NCBI GenBank assembly: GCA_028281385.1
Contig: JANQJY010000098.1
Span: 11,180-75,179 of the forward strand
Direction of reading: 5' to 3'
From: Rickettsiales bacterium
GTDB lineage: Bacteria > Pseudomonadota > Alphaproteobacteria > Rickettsiales > UBA3002
Length of the DNA stretch: 64,000 nt
Positions 24,141 to 43,302 of this stretch are shown one piece after another. The translations under genes and the position numbers were made by a program. Numbering within the stretch: position 1 is the stretch's first letter; every line of letters begins with the position of its first letter. Below the pieces are notes generated by a model. That model was not told where the DNA came from, ran no database searches, and worked only from the letters and a program-made list of their open reading frames with translations.

Positions 24141-24143
24141 TTT

Positions 24144-26069: not shown

Positions 26070-26104
26070 GGAATAAACAAGTAAAAAGACTCGGAGAAAG
26101 CACC

Positions 26105-26596: not shown

Positions 26597-26662
26597 GGCT
26601 ACATTTTTTTCAGCAATATTTCATATAATTCATTATAGAGAAAAAATCATCTCCTATAAAGT

Positions 26663-26941: not shown

Positions 26942-27030
26942 ATGCCTGTCATGACAAGCATATATGAAAAGAGCAACAAAAAACCAGGGACGCATTGCGT
27001 GATGCAACACGCCCCTGTAGGCAATGGAAG

Positions 27031-27178
27031 GGAGAGAGTTATATGTGAGAAGAGAGAAGAGGCTAGAAAATAGAGGCTAGGGATTTTACGCGCTAAAGGC
27101 GCGCAGGATATTTCGTTTGCAAAACAAACACATTCTTCATTCCCTAGCCTTTAACCTTTTATCTCTATTCTCTAACCT
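27031..27178. repeat. about 150-bp heptad-type palindromic element
   Basis: Arms gagaaga gagaaga ggctaga aaataga ggctagg and the reverse complement of ggttaga gaataga gataaaa ggttaaa ggctagg; two inner hairpins; abuts the capsid stop. Confidence 0.65.
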
Positions 27179-28376
27179 AAGCTGCTAGTTTCAGCAGTTT
27201 GATCGCTTCAGAGTTGACGACTTCACCGCCGACGCGTTTAACCGTATAGAATTTCACATACGGCTTATCGGTAAACGGATCGCGCAACACCTGAATGCCA
27301 ACACGGTCAACGATCAGATAGGCACGTTTGAAATCACCGATGGCGACCGATAGGCTATCCGCCGCTGCCACCGGCATATCCGCTGCGGCCTTGACCGGAA
27401 CACCCAGCAGCGTATCCGGCGTACCGGCAGCGAGGCCGGGTTGCCACAGATACTGATCGGTGGTGGATTCCTTCAACAACCGCACCACCTGAATGCTTGC
27501 ACGATTCATCAGGAAGGTCGCGTTTTTGGCATATTCATCCTTCAGACCGTAATAGAGATTAATCAGGCCATCGGCGGTGATGACCGCTGACGTACCGGAA
27601 TTAATCTGCTCGATCTGGCCAAAGCTCGTACCGGCGGTATAACTCAGGATGCCGGTCGGTTTGCCTGATCCGTCACCGGCGATGAAAGCGGTGGCTTCGA
27701 GCGTTGCGAATTTCTCGGCCACTTTTTCGGCCAGCCACGCTTCGACATCGATGCTAGCATCATCGATCAGCTTTTGCGTTGCTTTCGGAATCGCATACAT
27801 TTCATGCGTCGGAATGGTGTTTTTACCGATCTGATGCGTGGTCGTATCAGTCCGCGCCGCGGTTTCCGCCACCCAGTCCGCACCGGGCTGTTCGGTGTCT
27901 TCGATCACATCGAGGGAGTCGGTGGAGATGGTCTGTACCGATGCCAGCTCGCGCATGGGAGAGCTTTCATTGACGAGGCGCACAATGGTTTCCGACATTT
28001 CCGGCGTGACCAGATAACCGCCATCAGCCGGTGTACCGACGCTCAGCGCCTTGGTGTGTACTTGCTCGAGTCCGGCATCCATGCCTTTGCGCAGATAATT
28101 CCGGAAAGCCGCTTTATATTCATCGGCAATCTCACCGTTGACCGGCGTACCGGCCAGTTCGGTACCAGGGCGCGCATTGGCGGTTTCCATCTTATCCAGA
28201 CGCGATTTCTGATTATCAATCGCCTCATTGATCTTGGCCAGATGCTCCAAATAGAGCGGGTCGGCCGAACCCTTTTTCTCAAGCTCGGCAAGCCGGGCAT
28301 CATTGACCTGCTTCATGGTTTCCCATGCATTGCCGATCTGGTTCACCTTGTCAGTGATATCGCGTAACGAAGTCAT
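27177..28376 (-). CDS. HK97-family major capsid protein (RcGTA g5-like)
   Basis: N-terminal coiled delta-domain-like region, then ..GGYLVP.E.S..I..L..SPMR.LA.V..I.. and a C-terminus typical of TIGR01554-type capsids; start at ATG 28376. Confidence 0.92.
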   Translation of the reverse strand: MTSLRDITDKVNQIGNAWETMKQVNDARLAELEKKGSADPLYLEHLAKINEAIDNQKSRLDKMETANARPGTELAGTPVNGEIADEYKAAFRNYLRKGMDAGLEQVHTKALSVGTPADGGYLVTPEMSETIVRLVNESSPMRELASVQTISTDSLDVIEDTEQPGADWVAETAARTDTTTHQIGKNTIPTHEMYAIPKATQKLIDDASIDVEAWLAEKVAEKFATLEATAFIAGDGSGKPTGILSYTAGTSFGQIEQINSGTSAVITADGLINLYYGLKDEYAKNATFLMNRASIQVVRLLKESTTDQYLWQPGLAAGTPDTLLGVPVKAAADMPVAAADSLSVAIGDFKRAYLIVDRVGIQVLRDPFTDKPYVKFYTVKRVGGEVVNSEAIKLLKLAA

Positions 28377-28508
28377 AAAAAGTTCCTTCTTTTGGTTGGT
28401 TAATAGAGAAAATAAATTCGTGGGTTTCGATGCGCATGACAATCCTGTGACATTTCATACCCACCCTTAGCCTTACGGTTGCATTTTGCAGCGCAGCATG
28501 TTAAAAGA

Positions 28509-28534
28509 TTAACTAAATTTTAACTCTTTTTTAA
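28509..28534. promoter_or_regulatory. three phased TTAA half-sites (TTAA-N7-TTAA-N7-TTAA)
   Basis: ttaactaaattttaactcttttttaa in the divergent region between the capsid gene and the RTX gene. Confidence 0.4.
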
Positions 28535-28573
28535 CCTTTTGCCCAATGGGATTCAGATAATGCAGGCAGTATC

Positions 28574-29938
28574 ATGACTAATATTATCCATGACTCTCTA
28601 CGCTTTGATTATGGCCTGTCGCGCAATGCGCCGGAGGAGGTGATACGTTATTCGCTGAACACCGGGCTGTTCGAAGACGCATTTAACTTTGTTGACGGCA
28701 CGGATGACAATGATCAACTCACCATTGAAACCGTAGATGAATGGATGTTCGGCTTTGACGGTGATGATACGCTTCACGGTACCAGCAGTTCCGGCGACTA
28801 CATTGTATCACCACGCATGGTCGGGGGTGAAGGCCGCGATACATTTGTTATCTATGACCGTCCAAATGCTCACTATCGATACACCGACGCAGATATCGCC
28901 GATTTTCAGGTCGGGCTGGACAAGATCAATCTGGCGAATTTCTCAACACTTGCCTCCATGCACCAGCTCAGTATCAACACATATACCCAGCGTGCGTTGT
29001 ACGATACAGATCTGGTTACCTTCCGCATTACCGAAATGTTCAGTATCAATAGCGGACTAACATTGCGCGTTATCAATCTGGCCAGCGAGCGTGCACTGAA
29101 TGACAGTGATTTTATCTTCGCCTGGCAGAATGCGAATGTACCTCCTCTGCCAGTCATCGAAACGCCGGAACCTCTTCCCGAACCGGCTCCTGAACCAGAG
29201 CCGGGACCAACCTTAGAACCGGCACCTCAACCCTCTGCTCCTGATGTGATAAATTTCGTCCCTGATGAAACCATATATGGCTCCGAGGGTGCCGATGTCA
29301 TTCGTGGCAACAATCACCGCGATCTGATTTACGGTGGTCGCTCGCAATCCGATCCGGACGATGTGGGAGACACGATCATCGGCGGTACGGATGATGATTT
29401 GATCTATGCCAATGGCGGTGATGACCTTGTCTATGGTGGTGTGAATGCATCCAATACTGCTTCCGATGGAAATGACATTGCCTATGGCGGACTTGGCAAT
29501 GATACTCTTTACGGTGGTGGTCAGAATGACACTCTTTACGGTGGCGGAAACCGCTATGCACCGGATGATCAGGACGATAAAATATATGGTGGTAATGATA
29601 ATGATGAACTTTATGGCAATGGCGGCAATGACACGCTCTACGCCGGCTTAGGCAATGACTGGCTGCATGGCGGCTATGGAGATGACACCTATTATTTCAA
29701 TGCCACCGACAACAGCAATGTGATTGCTCATTTCGAAGGCGCAGGTGAATTCGGCGGTGATGTAATCGCGTTTAACATTAGCAATATCGCCTATGACAAC
29801 ATTATCAGCGTCATGACACAGCAAGGGGGAGATACCGTCATCACCCTTTCAAACCTCAGCAGTAGTTTCAATACAGCGGTTCGCATTGAAGATGTCACGC
29901 CGACACAATTCACTGCCGATGATATTTTGATCGTATAA
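28574..29938 (+). CDS. RTX (hemolysin-type Ca-binding repeat) protein
   Basis: Runs of GGxGxD nonamers (GGTDDDLIYANGGDDLVYGG..GGLGNDTLYGGGQNDTLYGG..); PEP-rich linker; C-terminus ..DDILIV. Confidence 0.85.
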   Translation: MTNIIHDSLRFDYGLSRNAPEEVIRYSLNTGLFEDAFNFVDGTDDNDQLTIETVDEWMFGFDGDDTLHGTSSSGDYIVSPRMVGGEGRDTFVIYDRPNAHYRYTDADIADFQVGLDKINLANFSTLASMHQLSINTYTQRALYDTDLVTFRITEMFSINSGLTLRVINLASERALNDSDFIFAWQNANVPPLPVIETPEPLPEPAPEPEPGPTLEPAPQPSAPDVINFVPDETIYGSEGADVIRGNNHRDLIYGGRSQSDPDDVGDTIIGGTDDDLIYANGGDDLVYGGVNASNTASDGNDIAYGGLGNDTLYGGGQNDTLYGGGNRYAPDDQDDKIYGGNDNDELYGNGGNDTLYAGLGNDWLHGGYGDDTYYFNATDNSNVIAHFEGAGEFGGDVIAFNISNIAYDNIISVMTQQGGDTVITLSNLSSSFNTAVRIEDVTPTQFTADDILIV

Positions 29939-29941
29939 CCA

Positions 29942-30565
29942 CTATAAACCAATCACCAACTGCTCCAGTCGCTCCAGCGCATGACATAGTGCAGCTATTT
30001 CCCGCGCATCCATCATGTCATCCTGAACTCGTTTCAGGACCTTTTCATTCTCTCCCTTCACCACCGTCACCTGCGCAGCATGATTCGCCGGAAAGGTCAC
30101 CAGGCTTACTTCGACCAGCTCCAGTTTTGACAGTTTGCGCACGCCCGAATCCGGATCCATATGATACCGCGTCGGCGAGTAGCCGATGCTGAGTCCCTGC
30201 ACGACGCCCTTTTTAAGCAGCGCGTAGGCTTCCCGCGCACGGGCCACTTCAAGCATGAGTTTACCTTCGACATACAACCCGTTTTCATCTTCGAACATCA
30301 CGGTGAAATAGCCAATCGGCTGGGTCATGTCATGCTGCCACAGCAGCTTGATCTGATCGACCCGCCGGCGGATCGATTCACGGAATGCGCCACGCAGCAC
30401 GATATCACGTTGGTTATCGACGACGTCAAACACGCTCGCATAACCGGCAAAATAACCGTCCTCATCGAGCGATTTAACCTCGAAATCAGCCGATAGCTGT
30501 TTTTGCGGCAGCATGCTTGGCGTCACCTTTTTTTCATAGATAGGTTGAATCATTTTATCCCTCAA
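29942..30565 (-). CDS. HK97-family prohead protease (RcGTA g4-like)
   Basis: GYFAGYASVFDVVDNQRDIVLRGAF..LWQHD..PIG..EDENGLYVEGKL..GLSIGY pattern of the S78/U35 peptidases. Confidence 0.9.
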   Translation of the reverse strand: MRDKMIQPIYEKKVTPSMLPQKQLSADFEVKSLDEDGYFAGYASVFDVVDNQRDIVLRGAFRESIRRRVDQIKLLWQHDMTQPIGYFTVMFEDENGLYVEGKLMLEVARAREAYALLKKGVVQGLSIGYSPTRYHMDPDSGVRKLSKLELVEVSLVTFPANHAAQVTVVKGENEKVLKRVQDDMMDAREIAALCHALERLEQLVIGL

Positions 30566-30590
30566 AATAAAATAGTGTGATACATATCGG

Positions 30591-30710
30591 CGCCAGGAGG
30601 CGCCGCTCTTTAGTGTGCGAAGCGCTCAGGCCCATTGCACGCGCTCGAGTTGCTGGCTGAGGCTACAACGAGAGCGGATAACAGCCAGCAGGCCGTAGCA
30701 GGGGCTTAAC
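30591..30710 (+). repeat. family-B element with a nested family-A hairpin fragment
   Basis: gccaggaggcgccg..ctttagtgtgcgaagcgctcaggcccattgc..[gttgctggctgaggctacaacgagagcggataac]..gccagcaggccgtagcaggggcttaac. Confidence 0.65.
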
Positions 30711-30723
30711 GCATACACAAACT

Positions 30724-30766
30724 GTCATCCAACTGTCATCAAGCTGACATCTTTATAGATTAAAAT
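30724..30766 (+). promoter_or_regulatory. box promoter f (gtcatccaactgtcatca, 19-nt spacer, taaaat)
   Basis: -10 at 30761..30766, 6 nt to ATG 30773 (leaderless geometry); extra TGTCA/TGACA copies nearby. Confidence 0.6.
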
Positions 30767-30772
30767 GACATC

Positions 30773-33052
30773 ATGAGTAATTCTGACGATACGATTGTTC
30801 TTCTTGGTGCACCCGTTAACTACCTCAGGACATTCTATGGTCTTTCAGAAGAACTGAGAGAAAACATCCTCGTACGAAACGCCTGCAGAGAAGCGTATGA
30901 CGGCAAGCTGAAAACCATTAAAGAAATTGAGAACTACCGGGAACACCCTACTGATCAACGCTCCAGGCTCCATACCCTGGTAAAGGAATTTGGCGAACTG
31001 GATAGTGATAATCCGCCAAAACTCGATTTCATCGGTATTCCTTTCTTTGCAGGTGGAGTGCTGGAATCCGTAAAACTCAAAGCCAATTTTACCGGAGGGA
31101 TGATCAGTAGCTCTCATCAATGGAACAATGTTACCGCCAGTGAATCCACCTTTGTGTACACGGGAATACACCCTTCTAAGATTTTCGGCGGTACCTTTGC
31201 CGGTGCCGATATGAGAGGTAGCAAGTGGATAAATAATGAGATTACAGGCACCGATTTTACCAACGCCAAGCTTGATGGTGCGGAGTTCAATGGTGTCAAA
31301 TTTGAAGGTAAAAAAGACGGTACGTTCGTATCATTCAGGAATGTTAATTTAGCCAACACAAAATTTACAGGCAAGTGCTCATTCAAGAATGTCGATTTTA
31401 TCGGTGCCACGTTTGGGGAAGAAACCTTTTCCTCCGCAAATATCGAGGTTGATAATTCATGTATATTTGGTGAGACTCCCGAAGCGGACCGTGCCGTGCG
31501 TGAAAGGCTTGGTTTCCCTAAATCTTCCGAAACAAAAGCCGCAAACACGGAAACAAAAACAGCAACAACGGTAGCGGTCCCGACTCCACCTGAACAGCCG
31601 CAAGGAAAGATAGTGACATTTCCCAACAACGGCGCCGAAGGAAACGGTACCAAATTTCCAAAACAGAATGAACCAGCTCGGGGCAGCGTTAGCATGCTCC
31701 CTATTCCCGGGAACGTGCTTGCGAACACACTTGATCTGCCCCAAGGCGTTATGGAGGATGAGTTTGTCAGGGAAGCGGCAGCAGAGCTACTTGAGCGGCA
31801 TCGGGATGGTACACCAAAACTGCTCAGCATTCCTGGTGTCAGCCATATCGTAAAGAACAAAGAACCTACCGCTGATGATATTGTAGCAGATTCCATCCAT
31901 CACCGAACGCCTCAGGCGTTGTACGATATATTAACGAGTGATGACTATACCCGCCCGGCAAAGGATGTGGAAGATGAATCCCCGGCAGAGGAAACGCCTC
32001 TCAAGCTTGACCTTATCAACCTTCATTTTAAGGGCAAAAACCCCATGCTGAATCAGGAGGATGAGGCAAATCGCAATAATATCCGGAACCGTCACATTCG
32101 CATCAATGCGACCAAATCTGTTTTTGACAACAAAGAGTTCGACCACTGTGAGTTCGACGGATCCACTCTTGTTGCCGCTACCATAAACAAGGGCTGCATA
32201 CGGGATAGTCGTCTTACCTCCATCGATGCCCGCGCTGCACAGTTTAACGATGTCATGCTCGCGCGTAATCTGTTCTCGCAATCGTTACTGGATGGCAGCA
32301 CATTCAAAGACTGTGAATTGTATAATACCCATTTCCAAAAAGGTACATCACTGAGCAAGAGTAAATTTACCGAAGATACCAAACTGATCCAATGCCAGTT
32401 TGATCAAACCCCGCTGACCAATGCCTGGTTTCATGGCACGCTCATTAATCGCTGTTCTTTCACTGATATCCATCCCAACTATAACAAAGACTGGGGAATG
32501 AAGAGCGCCACATTTACACGTGCTATCATTCAGGACAGCACATTCAAAAAATGCTACATGACGGATAATCGATTCAACTCCTCCACACTGGAGAATGTCG
32601 TTTTTGAAGACTGTCCGATGGGAGGTACCGAATTCATCAACACCACATTCAAAAATGTCGATTTCCGCGGTGCGACAGGTTTGGCTGCGGAGAGTTTTAG
32701 CTGCTATTGTACCCTTAACGAAGACTGCCAGTTTCCGCCGGAGCTGGAAGAAGCGCTGATCAAGACGGGCAAGCTAAAACGGCCAGAGCAGCAGCAGGAA
32801 GATCAGGCGAAACCGGAAGATCCACCGTCTGCTGAACCCTCCGGACCCAGACCGAAGGCAAAACGTTACGGTCACATGCAGAACGAGGACAAGAAAATAC
32901 CTCTCATTGGCCCTGACTGCGAAAAAACTCTGCGTAAGATACAGGATGACAAGGGCTCTCCTCAGTCAGAAGTGTCTGACGTCGAAGAGGGTGACAAGGT
33001 AGTCAAACTGCATTCTAACAAAGACAAGGGTGAGCCGCCAACACACAAATAA
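30773..33052 (+). CDS. pentapeptide-repeat protein (759 aa, two repeat blocks)
   Basis: A(D/N)LxG-type pentads, e.g. FAGADMRGSKWINNEITGTDFTNAKLDGAEFNGVKFEG and a second block around aa 450-650; the promoter implies a leaderless mRNA. Confidence 0.8.
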   Translation: MSNSDDTIVLLGAPVNYLRTFYGLSEELRENILVRNACREAYDGKLKTIKEIENYREHPTDQRSRLHTLVKEFGELDSDNPPKLDFIGIPFFAGGVLESVKLKANFTGGMISSSHQWNNVTASESTFVYTGIHPSKIFGGTFAGADMRGSKWINNEITGTDFTNAKLDGAEFNGVKFEGKKDGTFVSFRNVNLANTKFTGKCSFKNVDFIGATFGEETFSSANIEVDNSCIFGETPEADRAVRERLGFPKSSETKAANTETKTATTVAVPTPPEQPQGKIVTFPNNGAEGNGTKFPKQNEPARGSVSMLPIPGNVLANTLDLPQGVMEDEFVREAAAELLERHRDGTPKLLSIPGVSHIVKNKEPTADDIVADSIHHRTPQALYDILTSDDYTRPAKDVEDESPAEETPLKLDLINLHFKGKNPMLNQEDEANRNNIRNRHIRINATKSVFDNKEFDHCEFDGSTLVAATINKGCIRDSRLTSIDARAAQFNDVMLARNLFSQSLLDGSTFKDCELYNTHFQKGTSLSKSKFTEDTKLIQCQFDQTPLTNAWFHGTLINRCSFTDIHPNYNKDWGMKSATFTRAIIQDSTFKKCYMTDNRFNSSTLENVVFEDCPMGGTEFINTTFKNVDFRGATGLAAESFSCYCTLNEDCQFPPELEEALIKTGKLKRPEQQQEDQAKPEDPPSAEPSGPRPKAKRYGHMQNEDKKIPLIGPDCEKTLRKIQDDKGSPQSEVSDVEEGDKVVKLHSNKDKGEPPTHK

Positions 33053-33142
33053 TATGATGACAGGACAACCGGGACACGCAGCCTGAGGCTCTTGATTAGC
33101 GTTCCGATCCCCCCTGATTTCGGCGAAGGTACGATGGCCGAT

Positions 33143-33571
33143 TTAAATCGACGGGCCACCTTTCTTTTCTGCTGATTTTTTGCAGACCTCGTTTGCTTTA
33201 TGGGCCATTTCACTTCCTACACTAAATACAGTAACTTCCTTTTCATCCTTCTTACGAACCTTCGAGCTTTTTCCTTTGACACTATCACCACTGACACATA
33301 TGCCTTCAGCCCTACCTATTGTAATGTTAAATTCATCATACTCAGAGTTATTTATTACAGCCCTCAGAGAGGAAATATTGGGAAACGGATCATTCCACTC
33401 TTGTGTACTTTTCTGACAAGCTTCATTTACTTTATTGAGAAATTCAGATATTCCTTCAGTTCCCTTAGGCAGATTAAATTTAGGGGTTACACCTCCATTC
33501 GTACAGATGCTTTGCCCCATCTTTAAATCATCTTTACCTTGTTCGTATATATGAATTTTCGCATCTGTCAT
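33143..33571 (-). CDS. hypothetical protein (142 aa), A+T-rich
   Basis: ORF with GGGAGA RBS; box promoter at 33618..33660 overlaps the portal stop. Confidence 0.45.
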   Translation of the reverse strand: MTDAKIHIYEQGKDDLKMGQSICTNGGVTPKFNLPKGTEGISEFLNKVNEACQKSTQEWNDPFPNISSLRAVINNSEYDEFNITIGRAEGICVSGDSVKGKSSKVRKKDEKEVTVFSVGSEMAHKANEVCKKSAEKKGGPSI

Positions 33572-33617
33572 GATGTTATCTCCCTTGTTTGTTTATATAT
33601 TATCTATTATTAGCAGG

Positions 33618-33660
33618 ACAATATGACCGTTTGATGACCATTGTATGACAGCTTTATGAA
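33618..33660 (-). promoter_or_regulatory. box promoter g (ttcataaagctgtcatac, 19-nt spacer, tattgt)
   Basis: Box at 33643..33660 overlaps the portal stop codon region; upstream of 33143..33571. Confidence 0.5.
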
Positions 33661-34955
33661 TCATGCACTTCCCGTTTCATCCCGACCATGGCGCGTTTTT
33701 CGTCATCGCTCAGGAAATCGGCGTCTTTGGCACGTTCCCACAGATGATCGCGACGCAGGCTCAGTGCCGGTATGTTATCCAGATCGGCCGTCAGCCGAAG
33801 TTCATTACCGAACATCGGCGCCAGCCAGCCATTGAGCGCATCGGTCACCTGGCCGAGCAGCGGAATCACCGTCTGCTCCCACAGCGCCAGCCGTGCTTCG
33901 GCGAGGTTTGCATAGGTATTATCGCCCGGAATACCGAGCAATTGCGGCGGCACGCCGAAGGCCAGCGCAATATCTCTGGCGCTCGAATGTTTAGCGTCAA
34001 TAAAATCCATATCCTTAGGGCTCAGGCTCATTTCCTTCCAGTCGAGTCCACCTTCGAGCAATAACGGCCGTCCGGCATTTTCCGGACCGGAAAACTGCGC
34101 ATCAACCTGGTCTTTCACGCGCGCATATTGTTCTTCACTCAGACGTCCGCCCTGCTCTTTCATATTCACCACCAGCGCACCGGACGGCCGCGCTCCGTTT
34201 TGCAGCAATGCCTGATTCCAGGCGCCTGCCTGATTATGCTGATCGATCGAATAGGCCGCCGCTTCTACGGCGGATAATCCATACCAGTCATCCAGCGGGT
34301 GGAACTGTTTCAGATGCAGAATGCGTGACTGGCCTGTCAAGCGATCGACCGGGAAATCGGTGACCTGATCACCTACCGCGTAACGATAGCCTTTGGGCAT
34401 GCCCGCCTTGCCGGCGATCACCTGCACGCGGTCCGGGCGTAGCGCATACAGCTCCAGCGGCGCATCGCCTTTCGGTCCGACGGCCTGAATAAAGGCATTG
34501 CCGGAGATCAGTTGATAGGCATACAGCGCGTTGAAAAACTCTGCGCGTCCCTGCAGCGGATTCGGCCTGCGGATCAACCGCATCAACGGGTGAGGCGCTT
34601 CTGCAGTATTAAGTTTGAACGACACACTGGCCGCTGCGGTGGCAATCATATCAATCGCACGATGGGCCACCACATTTTTGCGGTAGGCTTCATCGGCGAA
34701 TTTCACGTAATCACGCCGCATCCATACCGGTTTGCCCGGCTGTTGCAGCATGCTTTGCGCGCCCAGCAGAAAGGAGGGGAAAATGGAGGATTTCGTGCTC
34801 GAGCGGTCGGCTGAGGCCGGAGCGAGAGCGGAAGATCCCGTGCTCGAGCGGTCGGCGGAGGGCGAAGCGACGGCGGAAGATGATTTTTCGCTTGTCAATC
34901 CCTCTTGATTATTCGCGCCGAACAAACGCGCCAACATGCCATGTCTGCGTACCAT
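33654..34955 (-). CDS. HK97-family phage portal protein (RcGTA g3-like) carrying an in-frame repeat insertion near the N-terminus
   Basis: ..YRKNVVAHRAIDMIA..GNAF...V....G.P.ELY.LRPDRV.V...G....Y.Y.. and the C-terminal ..PGDNTYANLAEARLALWEQT.. portal pattern; aa about 25-55 are encoded by two family-A units. Confidence 0.9.
   Translation of the reverse strand: MVRRHGMLARLFGANNQEGLTSEKSSSAVASPSADRSSTGSSALAPASADRSSTKSSIFPSFLLGAQSMLQQPGKPVWMRRDYVKFADEAYRKNVVAHRAIDMIATAAASVSFKLNTAEAPHPLMRLIRRPNPLQGRAEFFNALYAYQLISGNAFIQAVGPKGDAPLELYALRPDRVQVIAGKAGMPKGYRYAVGDQVTDFPVDRLTGQSRILHLKQFHPLDDWYGLSAVEAAAYSIDQHNQAGAWNQALLQNGARPSGALVVNMKEQGGRLSEEQYARVKDQVDAQFSGPENAGRPLLLEGGLDWKEMSLSPKDMDFIDAKHSSARDIALAFGVPPQLLGIPGDNTYANLAEARLALWEQTVIPLLGQVTDALNGWLAPMFGNELRLTADLDNIPALSLRRDHLWERAKDADFLSDDEKRAMVGMKREVHDS
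34796..34880 (+). repeat. two short family-A units inside the portal CDS
   Basis: gtgctcgagcggtcggctgaggccggagcgagagcggaag.. occurs twice; read antisense as ..SADRSST.. Confidence 0.85.
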
Positions 34956-35004
34956 AGAAATACCTCATTGATTAGTGAGTGTTAGTGGGTGGGTGTTAAT
35001 GGTT

Positions 35005-35046
35005 GTCATCCCGTGGAGCCGGTGAGTAAACCGGTGAGCACGGGAT
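35005..35046 (+). repeat. GTCATCCCG-type REP-like hairpin (nested)
   Basis: gtcatcccgtg gagccggtgagtaaaccggtgag cacgggat. Confidence 0.55.
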
Positions 35047-35108
35047 CCATCTATCCACGGGAGCATATGTTTCTGAGGCGATTCAGGAGAATCGCCGGAT
35101 GGTGCCTA

Positions 35109-35256
35109 TGCTCGAGCGGTCGGCTGAGGCCGGAGCGAGAGCGGAAGGTCCTGTGCTCGAGCGCTCGGCTGTGCATGAGTCGTTGGCTGAGGCCACGACG
35201 AATGCGGATGACTTGTCCGGCGCGAGAGCGAAAGAAGCGATCAGAGCGACGGTGAA
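35109..35256 (+). repeat. intergenic array of family-A units (short plus hairpin variants)
   Basis: ctcgagcggtcggctgaggccggagcgagagcgg.. then ..gagtcgttggctgaggccacgacgaatgcggat.. Confidence 0.85.
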
Positions 35257-35457
35257 ATCTCACCCAATTTCTTGACCCTACATTTATGTTTATACGCCCC
35301 TGTTCCACCCTCCGGAAGTCATAAAATGTAAAAAAATGACACACGGATGCAGAAAAATATTGAACTTCTTGTTTTTTAATAATAAATTGTATAAACGTAA
35401 TGGGCTACTTCGTCGCGGGATGACAGCTTCACATTTTCTTAAGAAAAATGCGCTATC

Positions 35458-35475
35458 GTCATAAAACCGTCACAT
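35458..35475 (+). promoter_or_regulatory. box h (gtcataaaaccgtcacat), no convincing -10
   Basis: Box only; upstream of the weak ORF 35553..35867. Confidence 0.3.
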
Positions 35476-35552
35476 TTTTTTAGTAAGATGAGGATGGGAG
35501 AAATATAAATGCGGACCATCCGCACATAACAAGAAATTAGGGAAGTAAATTA

Positions 35553-35867
35553 GTGTCAACGAGAAGCAGTATAAATTTAGTGCTTGAGGCTGCAAAAGGC
35601 AAAAGTGTGTCTCTAGGCTTACCGGATGATGCCAATGTCTTGGATGCTGCCAGCCGGTTAGGGGAACAGCTCGCAAGAATTAACCCACGCCATCCATCGC
35701 ATCGTGCTGGCGACCCTAATATTAGACCGGGAAAACTTTCTAAAGAGGCTTATACCGAAGCCAGAGAGATTGGTGGTCAAATAGCACGTGCTAATGAACA
35801 GATAACTGAAACACAAGCCGGTGAAAATATGCCTGCCAACAAAGGCGGAGAGCGTACTATTAGCTGA
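35553..35867 (+). CDS. hypothetical protein (104 aa)
   Basis: GTG-start ORF only. Confidence 0.3.
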   Translation: MSTRSSINLVLEAAKGKSVSLGLPDDANVLDAASRLGEQLARINPRHPSHRAGDPNIRPGKLSKEAYTEAREIGGQIARANEQITETQAGENMPANKGGERTIS

Positions 35868-35894
35868 TTCCTGTCCTCTTATAACCCTACACTT

Positions 35895-35936
35895 CTAACA
35901 ACTATCAACTAAAGACTAAAAACTAACCACTAAACT
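35895..35936. repeat. six tandem heptads CTAAnnA between convergent genes
   Basis: ctaacaa ctatcaa ctaaaga ctaaaaa ctaacca ctaaact; supplies the stop of 35923..36519. Confidence 0.7.
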
Positions 35937-36519
35937 CCGGACTTCGGGTTTCAGACGCCAGCTCTTGCATGTCCGCCTCTTTCACATCCACCTGCGCCGT
36001 GGGCTTCTCAGCCATGCGCCCGGGCGAAACGTTACCCAGTTCCCACTCTTCGTCATAATGGTCCAGCACGCCTTGGCCACGTAGCTGGCGTTTAAGTTCA
36101 TCCTTCAATTCCTGATTTTTCTCCTGTAAATCCGTCACTTCCTGTTGAAGCCGCTTGACCTGCCGTTTGCCGTCTTTGACTTCCTGCGTCACGCGGCGTG
36201 CAGCCATGAAAAAGGCAGCCACTGCAGCCATGGCACCCAACACTTTGCCTTTCATACCGGTATGGCGCTGATGTTCCGCATGATACTTCTCCTTGCGGAA
36301 ATCGCCCAATTCACCGATCAAATGGCCGATATAATAAGCGGGGACGCCAAACAGCAACCCGCGTGCCAGCGCGCTCAGCGACTCCGACGACCCGCGATAA
36401 GGCTCTTTCGCCAGCAGGGTGGCATCTTTTCCCTTATCATGCAGAATGGCGTTCAGTTCATCCTGACGCGCCTGATCGCCGGCTGAAATAGGCTCATACT
36501 GTGTTTTCCGTGTTGCCAC
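35923..36519 (-). CDS. hypothetical TM/coiled-coil protein (198 aa)
   Basis: ORF with two hydrophobic stretches and a heptad-like Lys/Glu/Gln region; its stop lies in a heptad repeat. Confidence 0.5.
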   Translation of the reverse strand: MATRKTQYEPISAGDQARQDELNAILHDKGKDATLLAKEPYRGSSESLSALARGLLFGVPAYYIGHLIGELGDFRKEKYHAEHQRHTGMKGKVLGAMAAVAAFFMAARRVTQEVKDGKRQVKRLQQEVTDLQEKNQELKDELKRQLRGQGVLDHYDEEWELGNVSPGRMAEKPTAQVDVKEADMQELASETRSPEFSG

Positions 36520-36692
36520 ACCTGCACTCCGGTTACATTTTTACTCATTATCAGTGTAACAGGATTAGAATCATTTTAAGTGAAGATTTGATGACGACTT
36601 TCGCGCCGGTTTTCGACTGCTGACAATTGGTGACTAACCTGCTAAACTCACCTGCAATATAATAAAAAATTCTAAAGGGAGTAGCGGTCACC

Positions 36693-39686
36693 GTGCCGAG
36701 TATCGTAATAAACCAGATGGTCGAGGAGGAAGTGCCTCAGGGCGGCACTATCTGTTTTGCCTATCCAAAGGATATGAATTACGGGCATTTCTGGGGATCC
36801 AGCCGCCATATTATTTCATTCGGAGCAATTGTCTGCCGTTCTCCGCGCGACTTCATGGTGTTGTTCCACCCCAATCAGATTGAAGTTCACTGGCATAAGC
36901 AAGAGCCAATTCCGGAAAACACCCTGCTCAATATCCAGCTGGAGGAAGTCGGCGGCAATATCCATGTCAATCCCGAACTTGGGTATCCCATTCACAATGT
37001 ATTGCGTTCCGAGATGTATCTGGTCGATCTGGGCAGCCCCAAGGCTGCCAGTCCGGTCTTTTATATCGAGCCACGCATTATTGGTGGGCCGGAAAAGCTG
37101 ATACCGCTACATTCGGGCGACGCCACATCTCGCAATGTCACGGTTTTGTGTGAAGGTGATGCCAGCAAATGTGAGTTCCGTATTTACGGAAAAGGCCCTT
37201 ACGACCGCCCGATGATGGAATATATCCCGGGCGTCCAATATGGGATGGCCGAAGGCCAAAAAGCCTTCAACTCAGTAGAAGCGATCATCACCACCGCGGC
37301 CTGCGGCGGCAGGATCAGCATTGGGACCGGCAATCGTCTGGGCTTTCCGGTCTTCATTCCCGGCAGCGGGTTTATTTTCCGTTACATGGTCGATGGCAAA
37401 GGTGTCATCGGAGCCGAACTGGTACCGGGATATATGAATAAACCTAATCCCTATTGCGGTGATCTGCGCGGGACGTTCAAACCACCGGAAGATATCGAAC
37501 TGAACGGCAAACGCAATTTGCAGGTGCTGGTGTCGCTGTTCAATATTGATCATATCGGCCATCAGGATGTGTATCAGGATCCGGAAGAAGCCTTTACAGA
37601 GTTGGCCGGCTCACTCGAGCAGGAACTAGAGCCGCCGGACTATGTCCGCATTCCGGATGAAGCAGATACGGTAGCCGGCGCTGCGCCTGCAATGCCTGCT
37701 GATGCGGTGCCTCCCACGGCACCCGTGCCACCCCCGCCGGTATCGCAAGAACACGCTGTATCACCAGAATCGCCAGCAATGCCGGATACTCCTGCACCGG
37801 CTCCGGTGCCGCCAGTACCGGCAGCGCCACCCGCCGAAACAGCGCCTCCTCTCCCTCTGATGGAGACACCGATGGCAAGCGATATCGACACGGCCAACTC
37901 CCCATCACCTCACACACAGAGTGCAATGAATTCTGCGCGCGATAACCTTGATGCGCTAAGCGGCAAAGCCAAAGAAAATCTGGATGCCATCGGTGACAAA
38001 GCAAAAGAAAAAATGAAGGGACTATTCTCCAAAATAGGCAAAGGGAAAAAGTCGGAAGATGATCTGCCACCGCCACCACCTGCGATGGCGGATCATGCCT
38101 TCTCTCCCTTTTCCATTCCGGAAAATCAGCCTCAGCCGGCTCCACCGGTGGCGGAACCGCCTGTACCACCAGCACCGCCACCACAAGAACAACCTGCGCC
38201 ACCACCTCTATCACCACCGAAAGACACATTGCAGACACAGATAGACCCGCATGCCCCCATTCCGCCATCGGCCATTCCGCCCGATTATGCGCCGGAAGCA
38301 ACGTCTCCACCGCCTCCGCCATCCTTTCCACCATCTGAGCCGGAACGTCCTGAACCACAGCCAACCTATTTCGTGCCGGAGCGGTCGGCTGAGGCCGGAG
38401 CGACGGCGGATAACCCCGTACCGGAGCGGTCGGATGTGCAGGAGTCGTTGGCTGAGGCCTCGATGGATGCGGATAACCAGGCCGGAGCTACTAACTCCGT
38501 GCCGGAGGCACAAACACCAGAGACACCGCCTGCGTCTGCTGAACCACCACCTGCCGAGCCGCCAGCCGCACCACCGTCGGTGCCGGAAACAGTGCCGCCG
38601 GAACCGATACAAGAAACGGTGCCGCTACCTCCTGTGTACGAGCAATCAAACGCGCAAGAGTCGTTGGCTAAGGCCACGACGGATGCCAATAATCCAGCAC
38701 CGGAGGAACCTGCTCCTCCAGCAACGGAACCTGTTTCACCACCGACGGAGCTGGCCCCACCTCCTGCCGCCCTTCCCGCGCCACCGGAACCGACGCCTGA
38801 ATTCAATCCGGAACCGCAGCCGGAAGAAATGGAGAATGAAGAAGAGGATGAAGAAGACACCGTTTTTGCCGAATCGCATGATGACAACGTATGGAATCAG
38901 CCGCCAGAGGCGCCCGTAACGGGCACGAATGCCCCGAAAGAACAGCTCAAAACACCTGCACCACCTTCCCCGCCAGTACCACCACCAGCAGTCGACAAGA
39001 TGGGTAATCTACCTATCACCGAATCGCATGATGATGATGTATGGAACCAGCCTGTGCCGGAGCGGTCGGCTGAGGCCGGAGCGACGGCGGATAGTTCTGT
39101 ACCGGAGCGGTCGGCTGAGGCCGGAGCAACGGCGAAAAATTCTGTGCCGGAGCGGTCGGCCGTGCAGGAGTCGTTGGCCGGGGCCACGACGAATGCGGAT
39201 CACCAGGCCGGAGCGACGGCGGATACTCAACCACCGACACCACCGGCACCGGCAGAGCAACCATCGCCGGTACCGCAGCCAGTAGAGCAGACACCACCTC
39301 CACCACCCGCGCCGGAGCCCGTGCCTGAACCGTCTTTTCCACCTCCGCCTCAGCCACCAGCACCGCAATCGGCCGCACCGCCTCCTACACAGGAGGCCGC
39401 ACCAATACCTGCACCACCTGTTGAACCACCACCAGCACCACAGCCCGTACAGGAAGCACCACCACCTCCTCCACCCGCGCCGGAGTCACAGACGAGTGAA
39501 CTACCGCCATCGACCCTGCCGCAAGGTATTATGGATACGGAAGACCAGCCGAATTATTTTGAATATATTGATGAACGCGCTGGGCAGGAGGCAGGAAATG
39601 CGGAGGAAACCAAACCAAAAGGGTTTAGCGCCGCGCCGCCCAACCGTCCGGCCTTCGGCTCCATCCCGCCTAAAGACGAGGAGTAA
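36693..39686 (+). CDS. 997-aa protein: about 300-aa globular N-domain plus about 700-aa proline-rich low-complexity tail containing several in-frame repeat elements
   Basis: GTG start with GGGAG RBS; long uninterrupted frame; PPPP/APxP runs; duplicated ESHDD(N/D)VWNQP motif. Confidence 0.7.
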   Translation: MPSIVINQMVEEEVPQGGTICFAYPKDMNYGHFWGSSRHIISFGAIVCRSPRDFMVLFHPNQIEVHWHKQEPIPENTLLNIQLEEVGGNIHVNPELGYPIHNVLRSEMYLVDLGSPKAASPVFYIEPRIIGGPEKLIPLHSGDATSRNVTVLCEGDASKCEFRIYGKGPYDRPMMEYIPGVQYGMAEGQKAFNSVEAIITTAACGGRISIGTGNRLGFPVFIPGSGFIFRYMVDGKGVIGAELVPGYMNKPNPYCGDLRGTFKPPEDIELNGKRNLQVLVSLFNIDHIGHQDVYQDPEEAFTELAGSLEQELEPPDYVRIPDEADTVAGAAPAMPADAVPPTAPVPPPPVSQEHAVSPESPAMPDTPAPAPVPPVPAAPPAETAPPLPLMETPMASDIDTANSPSPHTQSAMNSARDNLDALSGKAKENLDAIGDKAKEKMKGLFSKIGKGKKSEDDLPPPPPAMADHAFSPFSIPENQPQPAPPVAEPPVPPAPPPQEQPAPPPLSPPKDTLQTQIDPHAPIPPSAIPPDYAPEATSPPPPPSFPPSEPERPEPQPTYFVPERSAEAGATADNPVPERSDVQESLAEASMDADNQAGATNSVPEAQTPETPPASAEPPPAEPPAAPPSVPETVPPEPIQETVPLPPVYEQSNAQESLAKATTDANNPAPEEPAPPATEPVSPPTELAPPPAALPAPPEPTPEFNPEPQPEEMENEEEDEEDTVFAESHDDNVWNQPPEAPVTGTNAPKEQLKTPAPPSPPVPPPAVDKMGNLPITESHDDDVWNQPVPERSAEAGATADSSVPERSAEAGATAKNSVPERSAVQESLAGATTNADHQAGATADTQPPTPPAPAEQPSPVPQPVEQTPPPPPAPEPVPEPSFPPPPQPPAPQSAAPPPTQEAAPIPAPPVEPPPAPQPVQEAPPPPPPAPESQTSELPPSTLPQGIMDTEDQPNYFEYIDERAGQEAGNAEETKPKGFSAAPPNRPAFGSIPPKDEE
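38372..38492 (+). repeat. family-A units (short plus hairpin variant) in frame in 36693..39686
   Basis: Translated VPERSAEAGATADNPVPERSDVQESLAEASMDADNQAGA. Confidence 0.85.
38639..38705 (+). repeat. degenerate family-A hairpin-variant unit in frame
   Basis: ..caagagtcgttggctaaggccacgacggatgccaat.. translated QESLAKATTDANN. Confidence 0.6.
39053..39232 (+). repeat. three family-A units in frame in 36693..39686
   Basis: Translated VPERSAEAGATADSSVPERSAEAGATAKNSVPERSAVQESLAGATTNADHQAGATA. Confidence 0.85.
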
Positions 39687-39689
39687 TGG

Positions 39690-40958
39690 TTACCTGTTAA
39701 AAAAAGAGCCTTGATTTCTCATGATTTGTTCAATGCCTTGTATTCTGCTGCGATATGCCTCCATACAGTCATTGGCCACACGATCTGCGGCACCCATATC
39801 GCCATGCTTATGCAATTCGTTCAGATCCAACGTCAGATTCACATTAATTTCAGAGAGATGTAACATGCCCTGCTTGTCCTGCAACCAGTCTACACCGGCA
39901 ATTCCAACCCCTGTAAGATCGTAAAAATGTTTCGCCATACGCTCCACACGCGCTTTATTTTCCGGCGTTAAATCGTTATCGAGATCGACAGGCGCGATAC
40001 TGCCGCCCTGCGCATAATTCGCCAGCCATGATCCCTCTTTTGGATAACGCAAATAGGCCCCAACGCATTTTCCATGCGAGATCACAACACGCATGTCACC
40101 CTTGTTCGGTTCCAGCCATTTCATGGCCAGCATCGACCGGTCAGGAAAAGAAAAGTCATCAAACGGTTCAATCTTTGACGACTGCTCATGCGAAGATTTC
40201 TCATCATATTCAATAAGAAACGCTCCGTTTTCCTTTTCTTTGAAGATGCGGTAAACCGCCTTGCCGGCAATACTTCTTGGATCCTTAAGCACGACTTGGT
40301 CGAATCCGTGCTGCTGCATAAACTGTTTCACGTCCTCGACAGATTCTACCCTGGCACTCGTTGTACACAATCTTTCTCCACCAGAACGTTGTGCCATTTT
40401 TTTGTCAATCTCAGGAAGGTTGGCTTTGTTTTTGGCACGCAAAGCTCTGGAAGGCGGGCTGACAAAATAAAGTTCCGGATGTCTTCTTGCGATATACCGG
40501 TCAATCATTGACAGATTAGTACCTGAAACGCACATATCCACCTGATCGGTAGATAATGTCTCTGGCGGACACGATTTCATGTGCTCTTTAAGCTTTACTC
40601 CAAGTGCTTCACCATCACGTGACGGGCCATGCTCTCTTTTCAGCATATCTGTCAGATCATACGCATCGAATAAAAAAGAAACGCCTTGTACATTATACCC
40701 ATACCCATGATTCCGGGCAGCATCATAGTCTTTCTCATCCTCTAGCAACATTTCATAATTCTTTGATGCCGATTCAGGTTGAAAAGAAGCAAAATACAAA
40801 CGCTCACAATCCGGATGATTGGCCAGGGCTTCCAACAACAGCGGTTCATGGACCCGGTCCATGCACCCTGTCACCATAATCGTGGCTTTCTTCGGTGCCT
40901 CTTCAGGCGTCTGCCGTACCCGTGCCTGCCACGAGGTATCTCCTGGTTCATTCAGCAT
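39690..40958 (-). CDS. ATP-grasp-fold enzyme (RimK / glutathione-synthetase-like C-terminal half)
   Basis: ..VVLKDPRSIAGKAVYRI.. / ..MRVVISHGKCVGAYLRYPKEGSWLANYAQGGSI.. / ..GIAGVDWL.D..G.LHLSEINV.. match the ATP-grasp core pattern. Confidence 0.6.
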   Translation of the reverse strand: MLNEPGDTSWQARVRQTPEEAPKKATIMVTGCMDRVHEPLLLEALANHPDCERLYFASFQPESASKNYEMLLEDEKDYDAARNHGYGYNVQGVSFLFDAYDLTDMLKREHGPSRDGEALGVKLKEHMKSCPPETLSTDQVDMCVSGTNLSMIDRYIARRHPELYFVSPPSRALRAKNKANLPEIDKKMAQRSGGERLCTTSARVESVEDVKQFMQQHGFDQVVLKDPRSIAGKAVYRIFKEKENGAFLIEYDEKSSHEQSSKIEPFDDFSFPDRSMLAMKWLEPNKGDMRVVISHGKCVGAYLRYPKEGSWLANYAQGGSIAPVDLDNDLTPENKARVERMAKHFYDLTGVGIAGVDWLQDKQGMLHLSEINVNLTLDLNELHKHGDMGAADRVANDCMEAYRSRIQGIEQIMRNQGSFFNR

Positions 40959-40968
40959 AATACTGTCT

Positions 40969-41011
40969 ATTATAATCCCATAAAAACAATGAGATATGAC
41001 AGTTTCATGAA
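40969..41011 (-). promoter_or_regulatory. box promoter i (ttcatgaaactgtcatat, 19-nt spacer, tataat)
   Basis: -10 at 40969..40974, 10 nt to ATG 40958 of the ATP-grasp gene. Confidence 0.65.
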
Positions 41012-41023
41012 GTTATGTCGCTG

Positions 41024-41569
41024 CTACAGCCGCCGTATTTGAAGCCCGTCATACTCGCGTTCGCGCGCCCAGTTCAGATATTGTGACAATGCATCGACCT
41101 GATCGTCATGCGCACCGTTTGGAAAAGCGAGGATTTCCTGTTCAAATTCTGCCAACCAGCCGGCAAATGTCGGCAGTGCCACCTGTCCGGCTTCGATCAT
41201 CGGGGTCACAGCGGCAAAACGGGTCACCTTATCGCCACGCGGCATCACCGGAATAATCGGCAATGTCGTCTCACGTCTTACATCCTGAATGAGCGACTGA
41301 CCCGATGCCTTATCTTCGATCAGAATGCCTTCCGGGCGAAATTGTTCGGCCAGTGCAATCACCTGGCGTTTTAATTCCGGATATTCCACCCGCCCGCGCC
41401 AGACGTGAATGATCTGATGCACCCTCCCCCGGCGCTGTGAGTTTTTCCCCTCCTCAGAGAGAAGAGAAGAGAGAGAGGCTGAATTCCGGATTCTAACCAC
41501 CACACACGCACTGTAATCCCGTCCCGCGCCAGCCTTAATTGCAGTATCCCAGCTTTGAATGATGGTCAT
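41024..41569 (-). CDS. large terminase, C-terminal nuclease half (split RcGTA g2-like gene)
   Basis: IIQSWDTAIKAGAGRDYSACVV..IEDKASGQSLIQD..DK..R...V.P.IEAGQV.LP..A.WL..FE.E...FPNGAHDDQVDALSQYLNW. Confidence 0.85.
   Translation of the reverse strand: MTIIQSWDTAIKAGAGRDYSACVVVRIRNSASLSSLLSEEGKNSQRRGRVHQIIHVWRGRVEYPELKRQVIALAEQFRPEGILIEDKASGQSLIQDVRRETTLPIIPVMPRGDKVTRFAAVTPMIEAGQVALPTFAGWLAEFEQEILAFPNGAHDDQVDALSQYLNWAREREYDGLQIRRL
41441..41497. repeat. purine-rich heptad-element arm inside the terminase C-half, in frame
   Basis: ..gagagaagagaagagagagaggctgaa.. resembles 27045..27066 (gtgagaagagagaagaggctag); read as ..NSASLSSLLSEEGKNS.. Confidence 0.45.
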
Positions 41570-41654
41570 AAAACGTTAACCTTTTATTAGAGTTTATATG
41601 TCATGGTGACAAAGGAGAAATAGGTAAAATTGTACCTGATGTTCGGAGGATAAG

Positions 41655-42374
41655 GTGGCTGACGAAATCCCTGTGCCAAGACGCAGACCTCAAAAAGATA
41701 GAGACGGACTGAACGAGCTCTTTAAAAATCTGCCTACACCAGAAGAGCTTGCAACACTAAGAAAAATAGGAGAATGGCAAGGCATTATGCGGGAAGCCGG
41801 GCAATCAGGCTGGGAAAGTGTCATGCCTATCTACAAGGACAATTTAAAAGCATTTCGCAAGATGGTGAATGATCCGGAAACATTAAGAAATAACGCATTA
41901 ATCGACCGCTTTGGGACAGATGAGAAAGCCAAAGAAGTGTTGGGCAACACGCTGAAAAAATTTGAAAGTGCAATGGCACTTGGCGAAGCGTTTTCAAAAG
42001 CCAAAAAAGAAGCACTCAACGCCAACGATATTAAATCATTCAAAGGGGCCTTTAATCAGATGTATTCGACCAGGGACGCATTTACAGAAGCAATCGGAGA
42101 AGTGAATAGCGACCTGGACACTCTCCCTAGCTCGCTACATAAACTTTTACCTCATTCTCCCGGCGATATTAATGATAGAGGTATAACACGAGATTATGGA
42201 CACCAAAAGACTATCGAAAAAGAACTGAAAACGCTATTGGACAAGGAAATAATTGAAGAACACATACGTACCGCACCTGCACAAAAAGCGGATATTGGAG
42301 AACCGGATCACGGCCTGCCGGACTCTGCGCGAAATGTCGCGGACAAGGGAAAAGGCAGCCCTCAGATAGGCTAA
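41655..42374 (+). CDS. hypothetical protein (239 aa) lying between the two terminase halves
   Basis: GTG start preceded by GGAGGA; opposite strand to the terminase. Confidence 0.5.
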   Translation: MADEIPVPRRRPQKDRDGLNELFKNLPTPEELATLRKIGEWQGIMREAGQSGWESVMPIYKDNLKAFRKMVNDPETLRNNALIDRFGTDEKAKEVLGNTLKKFESAMALGEAFSKAKKEALNANDIKSFKGAFNQMYSTRDAFTEAIGEVNSDLDTLPSSLHKLLPHSPGDINDRGITRDYGHQKTIEKELKTLLDKEIIEEHIRTAPAQKADIGEPDHGLPDSARNVADKGKGSPQIG

Positions 42375-42408
42375 TACTTCAACGCGCCACTGGTAACGCG
42401 TAACACAC

Positions 42409-43302
42409 TCAAAACCGCCCAAACCATTCCAACTTGATCATCCCGCCTTCCTGCGGCAGGGGCTGCTGCTGGTATTGCGCGGCGAAGGCGGCGCTGCCAA
42501 GATCGCATTTGGCGCGTTCGATCAATGCCGCGTCTTCGCGCGCGGGATGCAGCAACTCTCCGGCGTGGCGCCGATACGTGCCCCACGCTTCCTCTTCGCT
42601 CGCAATCGCCGGAAGTTTGAGCCATTCCCATCCGCCTTTTTTGAGCAGATGGCCGGCGACATCCTCCTCATGCAACCGCTGCATCACCACCACCATCACC
42701 CCGCGTTTTTTGTCATCCAGCCGTGTTGAGAAAGTATGGTCGAACCAGTCATTAACAAACCGGCGCGTGATCACGCTGGAGGCATGGAGCGGGTTCATCA
42801 CGTCATCGGCAATCAGCACATTGCCGCCCTCGCCCGTCGCCGTGCCGAAGATGGATGTCGCCATGCGCATGCCGCGCGTCGTGGTCACGAATTTATGTTT
42901 TTCATTCTGATCACGGCTCAGCTGCGTGTCGGGGAACAGCGTGCGATACCAGTGTGACTGCATGACCAGCCGGCAATCCATCGAATGTTTATTGGCCAGT
43001 GACTGTGCATAGCTTGCCGCCATGATCCGTTGCCCCGGGTCCTGGCCCAACAGCCAGGCCGGCCATGCGACGGACACAATAAGCGACTTCAGCGAGCGCG
43101 GTGGCAGATTGATCACCAGCCGTGTCATTTCTCCCCGCTCGCATGCTGAGAGATATTCTGCAATCAGTTCAATATGCCAGTTCGGCAGGTAGGTCTGTCC
43201 CGGGCAGGCGGTCGCAAAGACCTTCTCGATAAATGCTTTGAAATCGATACGCAGGTAGGCTTCATGAATAGGAGGCATAATAATATTCCAAACATTGAGC
43301 AA
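42409..43302 (-). CDS. large terminase, N-terminal ATPase half (split RcGTA g2-like gene)
   Basis: ..LVINLPPRSLKSLIVSVAWPAWLLGQDP..RIM.ASY...LA.KHS...R.. (PPRxxKS Walker-A-like) ..IADDVMNP..AAQYQQQPLPQEGGMIKLEWF then stop. Confidence 0.85.
   Translation of the reverse strand: MLNVWNIIMPPIHEAYLRIDFKAFIEKVFATACPGQTYLPNWHIELIAEYLSACERGEMTRLVINLPPRSLKSLIVSVAWPAWLLGQDPGQRIMAASYAQSLANKHSMDCRLVMQSHWYRTLFPDTQLSRDQNEKHKFVTTTRGMRMATSIFGTATGEGGNVLIADDVMNPLHASSVITRRFVNDWFDHTFSTRLDDKKRGVMVVVMQRLHEEDVAGHLLKKGGWEWLKLPAIASEEEAWGTYRRHAGELLHPAREDAALIERAKCDLGSAAFAAQYQQQPLPQEGGMIKLEWFGRF

Follow-up and report, generated by a model that had tools for sequence, protein, structure and literature searches.

The large terminase gene of a Rickettsiales gene-transfer-agent-type cluster lies in two pieces around an opposite-strand gene

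Anatomy of the split terL locus

The window analysed here is a 64,000-nucleotide stretch of DNA from a Rickettsiales bacterium (assembly GCA_028281385.1, contig JANQJY010000098.1, positions 11,180 to 75,179), in which terL, which encodes the large subunit of terminase (TerL), lies in two pieces. The ATPase half (hereafter N-half) is encoded on the minus strand at 42409..43302 and comprises a complete ATPase (translocase) domain, as judged from its match to phrog_38, its AlphaFold2 (AF2) model and its motifs. Counted from a TTG codon, it has 297 aa; the public gene call (P0002) takes an internal ATG at 43278, likely the real start, and gives 289 aa. The N-half ends in ...AAQYQQQPLPQEGGMIKLEWFGRF-stop, also written ...GGMIKLEWFGRF-TGA, the final residues being LEWFGRF followed directly by TGA. 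The nuclease half (C-half) is encoded at 41024..41569, also on the minus strand, and is a complete RNase H-like nuclease domain as judged from its Pfam family (PF17289), AF2 model and motifs. It has 181 aa and its own ATG, opening with MTIIQSWDTAIKAG.

The two halves are separated by 839 bp (41570..42408), the GC content of which is 42-44% compared with 55-61% in the terL halves. This interval is made up of a 34-bp convergent junction between the stop codons of the N-half and of an inserted gene (42375..42408), the inserted gene itself, which runs on the plus strand from a GTG start and encodes 239 aa (41655..42374), and a divergent AT-rich spacer of 85 bp between the starts of the inserted gene and of the C-half (41570..41654). 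A sequence-only reading of the window had placed the N-half stop at 42409, the C-half ATG at 41569 and, in the 839 bp between them, a plus-strand open reading frame (ORF) of 239 aa with a GGAGGA ribosome-binding site. Every coordinate was reproduced, and the GGAGGA (41645-41650) sits 4 nt upstream of the GTG.

Given that the gene order of RcGTA is followed on the same strand, the split gene is g2 of a complete RcGTA-type gene transfer agent (GTA) cluster (g2-g15, ~2947..43302) and no stray prophage fragment. The GTA genes g2-g15 are on the minus strand and collinear in RcGTA order, and g3-g15 were found intact by Pfam and PHROG scans.

Both terL halves are predicted to be complete domains

The N-half matches the PHROG family 'terminase large subunit' (phrog_38, E = 1.8e-62) and gave no match in a Pfam scan; the C-half belongs to Pfam Terminase_6C (PF17289, E = 2e-17). 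A PDB sequence search with the concatenated protein returned no match, and a fold search was therefore used instead. The AF2 model of the N-half (predicted local distance difference test score, pLDDT, 83.6) matches the TerL ATPases 8dgc_E (TMq 0.72), T4 gp17 (2o0j) and HK97 (6z6d), and that of the C-half (pLDDT 86.9) matches 8dgc_E, G20c (5m1q, TMq 0.64) and the RB49 gp17, Sf6 gp2 and PhiV-1 nucleases. On these models, both halves are confidently predicted to fold as complete TerL domains. The C-half carries a private low-complexity loop, RIRNSASLSSLLSEEGKNSQRRGRV, at residues ~26-50 (window 41420-41494), which has a low pLDDT; at this loop the C-half of a related locus (L003) bears a different insertion.

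All the conserved motifs that had been reported from the sequence were found: INLPPRSLKS and LIADD in the N-half, and SWDTA, IEDKASG and HDDQVDA in the C-half. Neither the Walker-A-like PPRSLKS nor LIADD varies among relatives, whether split or fused, and in alignments the three C-half motifs are invariant or almost so across both forms.

In tblastn, the concatenated halves gave one unbroken segment, which covers intact TerLs of phages over 92-97%. When the proteins are aligned with close fused relatives, the inter-domain linker proves to be the site of the break, as the sequence-only reading had proposed. Fused relatives read ...WFxRY-(9-12 aa linker)-xVQSWDTAIK; the N-half of the window stops straight after RF, and the C-half begins 4 residues ahead of QSWDTA. 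Against intact relatives, the loss is limited to ~8-10 linker residues and no part of either domain is missing, so that the missing domain parts or catalytic residues that would mark a plain pseudogene were not seen. What the locus lacks is the usual TerL arrangement, with both domains on a single linked polypeptide.

The same split recurs in related genomes

Orthologous loci in related genomes were surveyed at the level of proteins and of loci, and the same split recurs in many of them. A protein search with the N-half yielded 4190 matches, the best 120 of which were classified, as were the best 120 for the C-half. Among these nearest homologues, 55 of the 120 N-half matches are ATPase-only proteins of 280-337 aa, most of which share one and the same terminus, ...WFxR[F/Y]-stop; all of the closest 26 (63-72% identity) are ATPase-only, and identity to the N-half is 59-65% for fused relatives. 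For the C-half, 108 of the 120 are stand-alone nucleases (161-191 aa), and the 120 include no full-length protein.

Contigs and 80 genome loci, all from metagenome-assembled genomes labelled Rickettsiales, Alphaproteobacteria or Azospirillaceae, were then classified by script. terL is fused at ~60 loci. It is split without any insert at four, where the junctions are ATGA (L017), TAATG (L029), TAAcATG (L009) and GGAGGcatATG inside the upstream ORF (L046); in sequence, these are classic signatures of translational coupling. At 13 genome or metagenome loci, opposite-strand or non-coding inserts of 259-4208 bp lie between the terL halves. In GCA_020054645.1 (JAHXBR010000010.1), portal, protease and capsid come, in this order, between TerL-N and TerL-C; the halves (L090 1907-2749 and L086 10001-10495) are ~15 kb apart and hence separate genes, and the C-half lies just upstream of the connector genes.

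Credibly coding insert genes number 15 in nine loci, the window included, and 100% of them are on the strand opposite to terL. The content of the inserts differs between genomes, and most inserts are mutually unrelated. A fast-evolving family whose N-terminus bears a weak GH108 (lysozyme-like) signature forms the opposite-strand insert in four related genomes (L087 6785-7813, L003 9273-11072, L005 6905-7855 and L021 11847-12473); beyond this family, an all-against-all comparison of the inserts gave one marginal pair only. It had been proposed that the opposite-strand gene split terL. Since there are split relatives with no insert, and since insert content varies, the sequences suggest instead that the split most likely predates the insertion seen in the window.

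One subgroup of N-halves (P0034, P0042, P0049, P0060, P0075, P0107 and P0119; L046 10800-10900) has the tail ...FDLEPYVRTILGHGD. This tail is an out-of-frame reading of the SWDTA-coding region, and the overlapping C-half ORF starts at GGAGGcatATG within the N-half gene.

The inserted gene and its flanking spacers

The inserted ORF has a good coding signature at the sequence level. Its 244-codon stop-free run was matched by 0 of 5000 shuffles, and its GC content by codon position is 0.55/0.38/0.41, with G-rich first positions. The GC content at third codon positions, 0.41 compared with 0.57-0.68 in terL, is foreign. The product is an ORFan rich in K, E, L, A and D: its only match among 5.8 billion proteins was itself, no Pfam family was found, and the single PHROG match was marginal (phrog_28599, E = 0.0089). 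No relatedness to the inserts of other genomes was detectable, and membership in the weak GH108-like insert family (L003, L005, L021, L087) was likewise not detectable.

The 34-bp convergent junction is too small for an obvious terminator; in relatives, the N-half and the insert gene overlap by 4 nt at one extreme of this junction and are 13 bp apart at the other. On the other side, an AAGG resembling a Shine-Dalgarno (SD) sequence lies at 41581-41584, 11 nt ahead of the C-half ATG, within the box AAAGGTTAAC. The box recurs in several relatives, and an SD-like AAGG or AGG is found 8-12 nt before the C-half ATG across loci. The 85-bp divergent spacer may have a promoter role, and the C-half could be transcribed either from its own promoter in this spacer or by read-through antisense to the insert.

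The window has 7 perfect CtrA-type boxes (TTAA-N7-TTAA), where 0.89 would be expected: two that overlap (28509-28534) are in the divergent spacer between the capsid and RTX genes, and the others are at 2848, 7644, 22007, 57117 and 61927. A box with one mismatch lies at 41576-41590, before the C-half. When up to one mismatch is allowed, 5 of 16 loci have a box in the 100 nt upstream of the C-half ATG, at 16-30 nt, where 1.24 would be expected. As a candidate for the C-half promoter, the CtrA box was set aside, given the weak enrichment and the odd nearness of the boxes to the ATG.

Selection and phylogeny of split and fused forms

Selection on the two halves was assessed by Nei-Gojobori counts for 45 split-split pairs from ten split loci, compared with 105 fused-fused pairs of similar divergence. 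For the split pairs, pN and pS were 0.268 and 0.666 in the N-half and 0.252 and 0.677 in the C-half; for the fused pairs, they were 0.251 and 0.679 in the N part and 0.285 and 0.703 in the C part. The pN/pS values of split and fused forms are thus indistinguishable. Identity by codon position was 0.69/0.77/0.47. The ratio of C-half to N-half rates was 0.96 in split and 1.08 in fused forms, with no speed-up of the C-half. These counts indicate that both halves are under protein-level constraint, which is no weaker after the split.

In a neighbour-joining (NJ) tree with 200 bootstraps, most split forms group together, a clade with 96% support mixes split and fused forms, and L047 and L073 fall elsewhere. 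Several independent splits, or re-fusions, are likely on this tree.

A two-polypeptide terminase as the favoured interpretation

Two outcomes of the split had been put forward from the sequence, an inactivated packaging motor and a two-polypeptide terminase, and the comparative evidence favours the latter. We consider it likely that the locus encodes a working two-polypeptide terminase and that fast-evolving genes have come to land in its gap; we infer the enzyme's expression and activity from the comparisons above. The history may have begun with a fused terL that gained a stop codon or frameshift in its linker and became two translationally coupled ORFs. The two domains would fold independently and associate non-covalently on the portal or procapsid, so that the two-subunit enzyme would stay functional. 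The new intergenic gap could then have offered a permissive landing site, in which fast-evolving genes were fixed only in the opposite orientation; its occupant in the window would be the lineage-specific ORFan of 239 aa. The C-half would have gained its own translation start, with transcription from the 85-bp divergent region or by read-through. The loci may accordingly be arranged in a series from fused, through coupled two-ORF and a gap colonised by foreign genes, to unlinked halves, with the window at the third stage. Today, the halves would be translated separately, the N-half forming the packaging ATPase ring and the C-half being recruited non-covalently for headful cuts.

Several points weigh against this interpretation. 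Separately expressed ATPase and nuclease domains of T4 gp17 reportedly did not reconstitute packaging in biochemical work, which means that non-covalent function is not a given. Some split relatives look decayed, the C-half being truncated in L049 and the nuclease motifs altered in L073, and the low-complexity loop of the window C-half is unusual. A consensus promoter scan of the 85-bp spacer gave no match, leaving the C-half with no recognisable promoter; consensus promoter and terminator matches overall were as many as in shuffles, and the scan is uninformative. Synonymous divergence (dS) was saturated, and the dN/dS values of ~0.1-0.28 are hence rough. The backbone of the NJ tree is weak, and the tree does not settle the number of splits or the question of re-fusion. 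Finally, the lineage is known from the sequences of uncultured organisms alone.

The likeliest alternative, which we still regard as improbable, is that both halves have been kept and function, though not together as a packaging enzyme. The ATPase might, for instance, package alone in the manner of phi29 and the nuclease have been recruited as a free endonuclease, or the other way round. The halves can indeed be 15 kb apart and in different parts of the cluster, window-type halves have no evident docking tails, and the selection data reveal constraint without telling which function is constrained. The C-half, however, is found inside or beside the GTA head-gene cluster in every locus examined, and the relative rates of the two halves are the same as in fused enzymes. 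Moreover, headful packaging requires a nuclease, and there is no other TerL nuclease in the window.

That the locus is a plain pseudogene, an inactivated motor in a decaying GTA cluster whose particles, if any, would package no DNA, is improbable. The interruption of the gene, the bloating of the cluster by foreign genes, the low-complexity insertion in the C-half and the decay in a few relatives (L049, L073) would all fit such a history. Both ORFs are nevertheless full length with all motifs present, and the same break occurs in >50 N-half and >100 C-half protein clusters. Coupled junctions exist in relatives, an SD-like box is conserved ahead of the C-half, and none of the other GTA genes is broken. 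Many divergent genomes conserve the split, and purifying selection acts on its two halves as it does on fused TerLs, with equal pN/pS; this analysis strongly disfavours a pseudogene, as no relaxed selection, broken frame or lost catalytic residue was found.

It is more doubtful still that a single TerL is restored by an intron, a split intein, ribosomal bypass or frameshifting, or regulated excision of the insert. Precedents exist: phage terL genes split by group I introns are repaired by RNA splicing (PMC12880540), and the herpesvirus gene UL15 is spliced across opposite-strand genes (PMC3079670). A frameshift product is also conceivable in the no-insert relatives. The N-half of the window, however, has a stop codon, the C-half has an ATG and an SD-like box, and inserts as long as 4.2 kb, or 15 kb, occur in relatives and contain several genes on the opposite strand. 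Group I and group II introns were rejected: Rfam at gathering threshold gave no match in the whole window, and at E <= 10 it gave no intron family on 41300-42700, just two chance snoRNA matches. No Hint-domain Pfam match was obtained in either half, the fragments start and stop at domain borders, and their ends carry no extra residues that could serve as an intein half, which speaks against an intein or split intein. A repeat search of 41300-42700 detected neither terminal inverted repeats nor direct repeats so positioned that the gene could be restored with an in-frame junction. The search for target-site duplications was negative as well, with no terminal repeat flanking the insert, and for want of suitably placed repeats an insertion sequence, a target-site duplication and an excision element were all rejected. 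The window insert contains no recombinase or homing endonuclease, and no HNH, GIY-YIG, LAGLIDADG or similar Pfam domain was found in it or in nine inserts from relatives; fission by a homing endonuclease was discarded on this ground.

An assembly or sequencing artefact, by chimeric join or misassembled insert at 41570..42408, might be suspected from the sharp GC drop within the insert and from the window contig being a singleton in databases, but it is ruled out for practical purposes by the same architecture in independent NCBI, ENA, JGI and Logan assemblies, with stops and starts at homologous positions, and by the clean ORF with its ribosome-binding site in the insert.

Comparison with known terminases and split genes

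To our knowledge, all characterised large terminases of tailed phages, herpesviruses and GTAs have motor and nuclease on one chain. The RcGTA cluster is ~15 kb long. The window TerL shares its family, cluster context (g3-g8, g12-g15), motifs and folds with RcGTA g2 and the fused HK97-like TerLs of Alphaproteobacteria, including Rickettsiales GTAs; it differs in being two polypeptides with the linker removed, a foreign opposite-strand gene between them and a cluster of ~40 kb. Full-text literature searches on split terminases brought up no GTA in which TerL is described as two genes, and George et al. 2022 make no mention of such a form. The largest survey of GTA TerLs discarded 'partial' TerLs without either domain (PMC7947584), and a two-gene TerL clade would therefore have been hidden from it.

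The closest architectural parallel is the herpesvirus terminase gene, which is likewise a TerL-family gene interrupted by lineage-variable, mostly opposite-strand genes. In UL15 the exons join within the ATPase region, outside the ATPase-nuclease linker. The two exons of HSV-1 UL15 and its homologues flank 2-5 genes, depending on the lineage and mostly in opposite orientation (PMC3079670, PMC6466031). That interruption is a spliceosomal intron and yields one fused protein, whereas the window has neither splicing machinery nor a splicing signal and is predicted to encode two proteins; the likeness is an analogy of architecture, and the interruption is not homologous.

A second parallel is nrdA of Aeromonas phage Aeh1, which is split by the homing endonuclease gene mobE and whose two polypeptides assemble non-covalently and stay functional (PMC3045599). 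Both cases have an essential enzyme gene in two pieces around an inserted gene. In Aeh1, however, the homing endonuclease is identifiable and new tails mediate assembly; in the window, the insert has no endonuclease domain and window-type halves lack added tails, and what the insert contains differs from genome to genome. Finally, terL is a frequent target of insertions and is split by group I introns in, for example, Jug phages (PMC12880540). The TerL of E. coli phage BUCT618 matched in two pieces and was considered as a split terL; it proved to be a single 789-aa coding sequence with an in-frame internal insertion. In the intron and intein forms (Jug phages, BUCT618), one polypeptide is restored by RNA or protein splicing, features for which the window has no counterpart.

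With somewhat better than even confidence, we propose a wider reading, in which a clade of uncultured Alphaproteobacteria runs its GTA motor from two polypeptides that are sometimes unlinked, and the junctions of the GTA cluster act as landing pads for fast-evolving, mostly opposite-strand and possibly effector-like genes, a bacterial parallel to UL15. A mechanical role is assigned to the inter-domain linker and to relative domain motion in rival models of how force is generated and how motor and portal dock. If the proposal is true, the two-polypeptide clade would show that the covalent ATPase-nuclease linkage is dispensable. A naturally split, selectively maintained TerL would be a ready test of the need for the covalent link, and dozens of natural variants exist in fused, coupled, separated and unlinked form. 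Surveys that drop 'partial' TerLs (PMC7947584), or that demand a full-length TerL for GTA or prophage calls, would miss or mis-score the lineage.

The GTA cluster around the split gene

The remaining GTA genes were assigned by Pfam and PHROG matches, all on the minus strand. The head and connector genes are portal (g3, 33654-34955), prohead protease (g4, 29942-30565), capsid (g5, 27177-28442), head-tail adaptor (g6, 23420-23998), head completion protein (23055-23423) and tail completion protein (22657-23058). They are followed by g12 (DUF2460, 10283-10888), the hub g13 (9410-10258), the NlpC/P60 peptidase g14 (8076-8531) and g15 (2947-6630), the 1227-aa product of which carries GTA_TIM, Phage-tail_3 and Rcc01698_C.

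Interleaved non-GTA genes stretch the cluster to ~40 kb, and it is thus not the compact, co-transcribed unit of ~15 kb. Firmly assigned among them are three on the opposite (plus) strand, namely a 997-aa gene (36693-39686), a pentapeptide-repeat gene (30773-33052) and an RTX gene (28574-29938), and one on the same (minus) strand, an ATP-grasp gene (39690-40958). A plus-strand block of mechanically called ORFs at 16708-22616 has no family hits; five of its six ORFs were scanned, against PHROGs only, with no match. No integrase, replication or lysis gene was seen among the ORFs scanned. This architecture is unusual, a domesticated viral operon broken into single-gene units among foreign genes.

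Between the C-half and portal lies a minus-strand gene of 198 aa (phrog_7569 by PHROG match, 35923-36519), whose position and sequence are both conserved among relatives (L088 9242-9850, L005 8782-9282). Going by this conservation, its product may be an unrecognised GTA component. The ATP-grasp gene, which is RimK/GSH-synthetase-like, adjoins the C-half downstream on the same strand, and a RimK-like ATP-grasp gene (980-2362) is also found near the split terL of L001. Relatives carry interleaved genes too: in L005 and L090, a pentapeptide-repeat gene lies between portal and protease.

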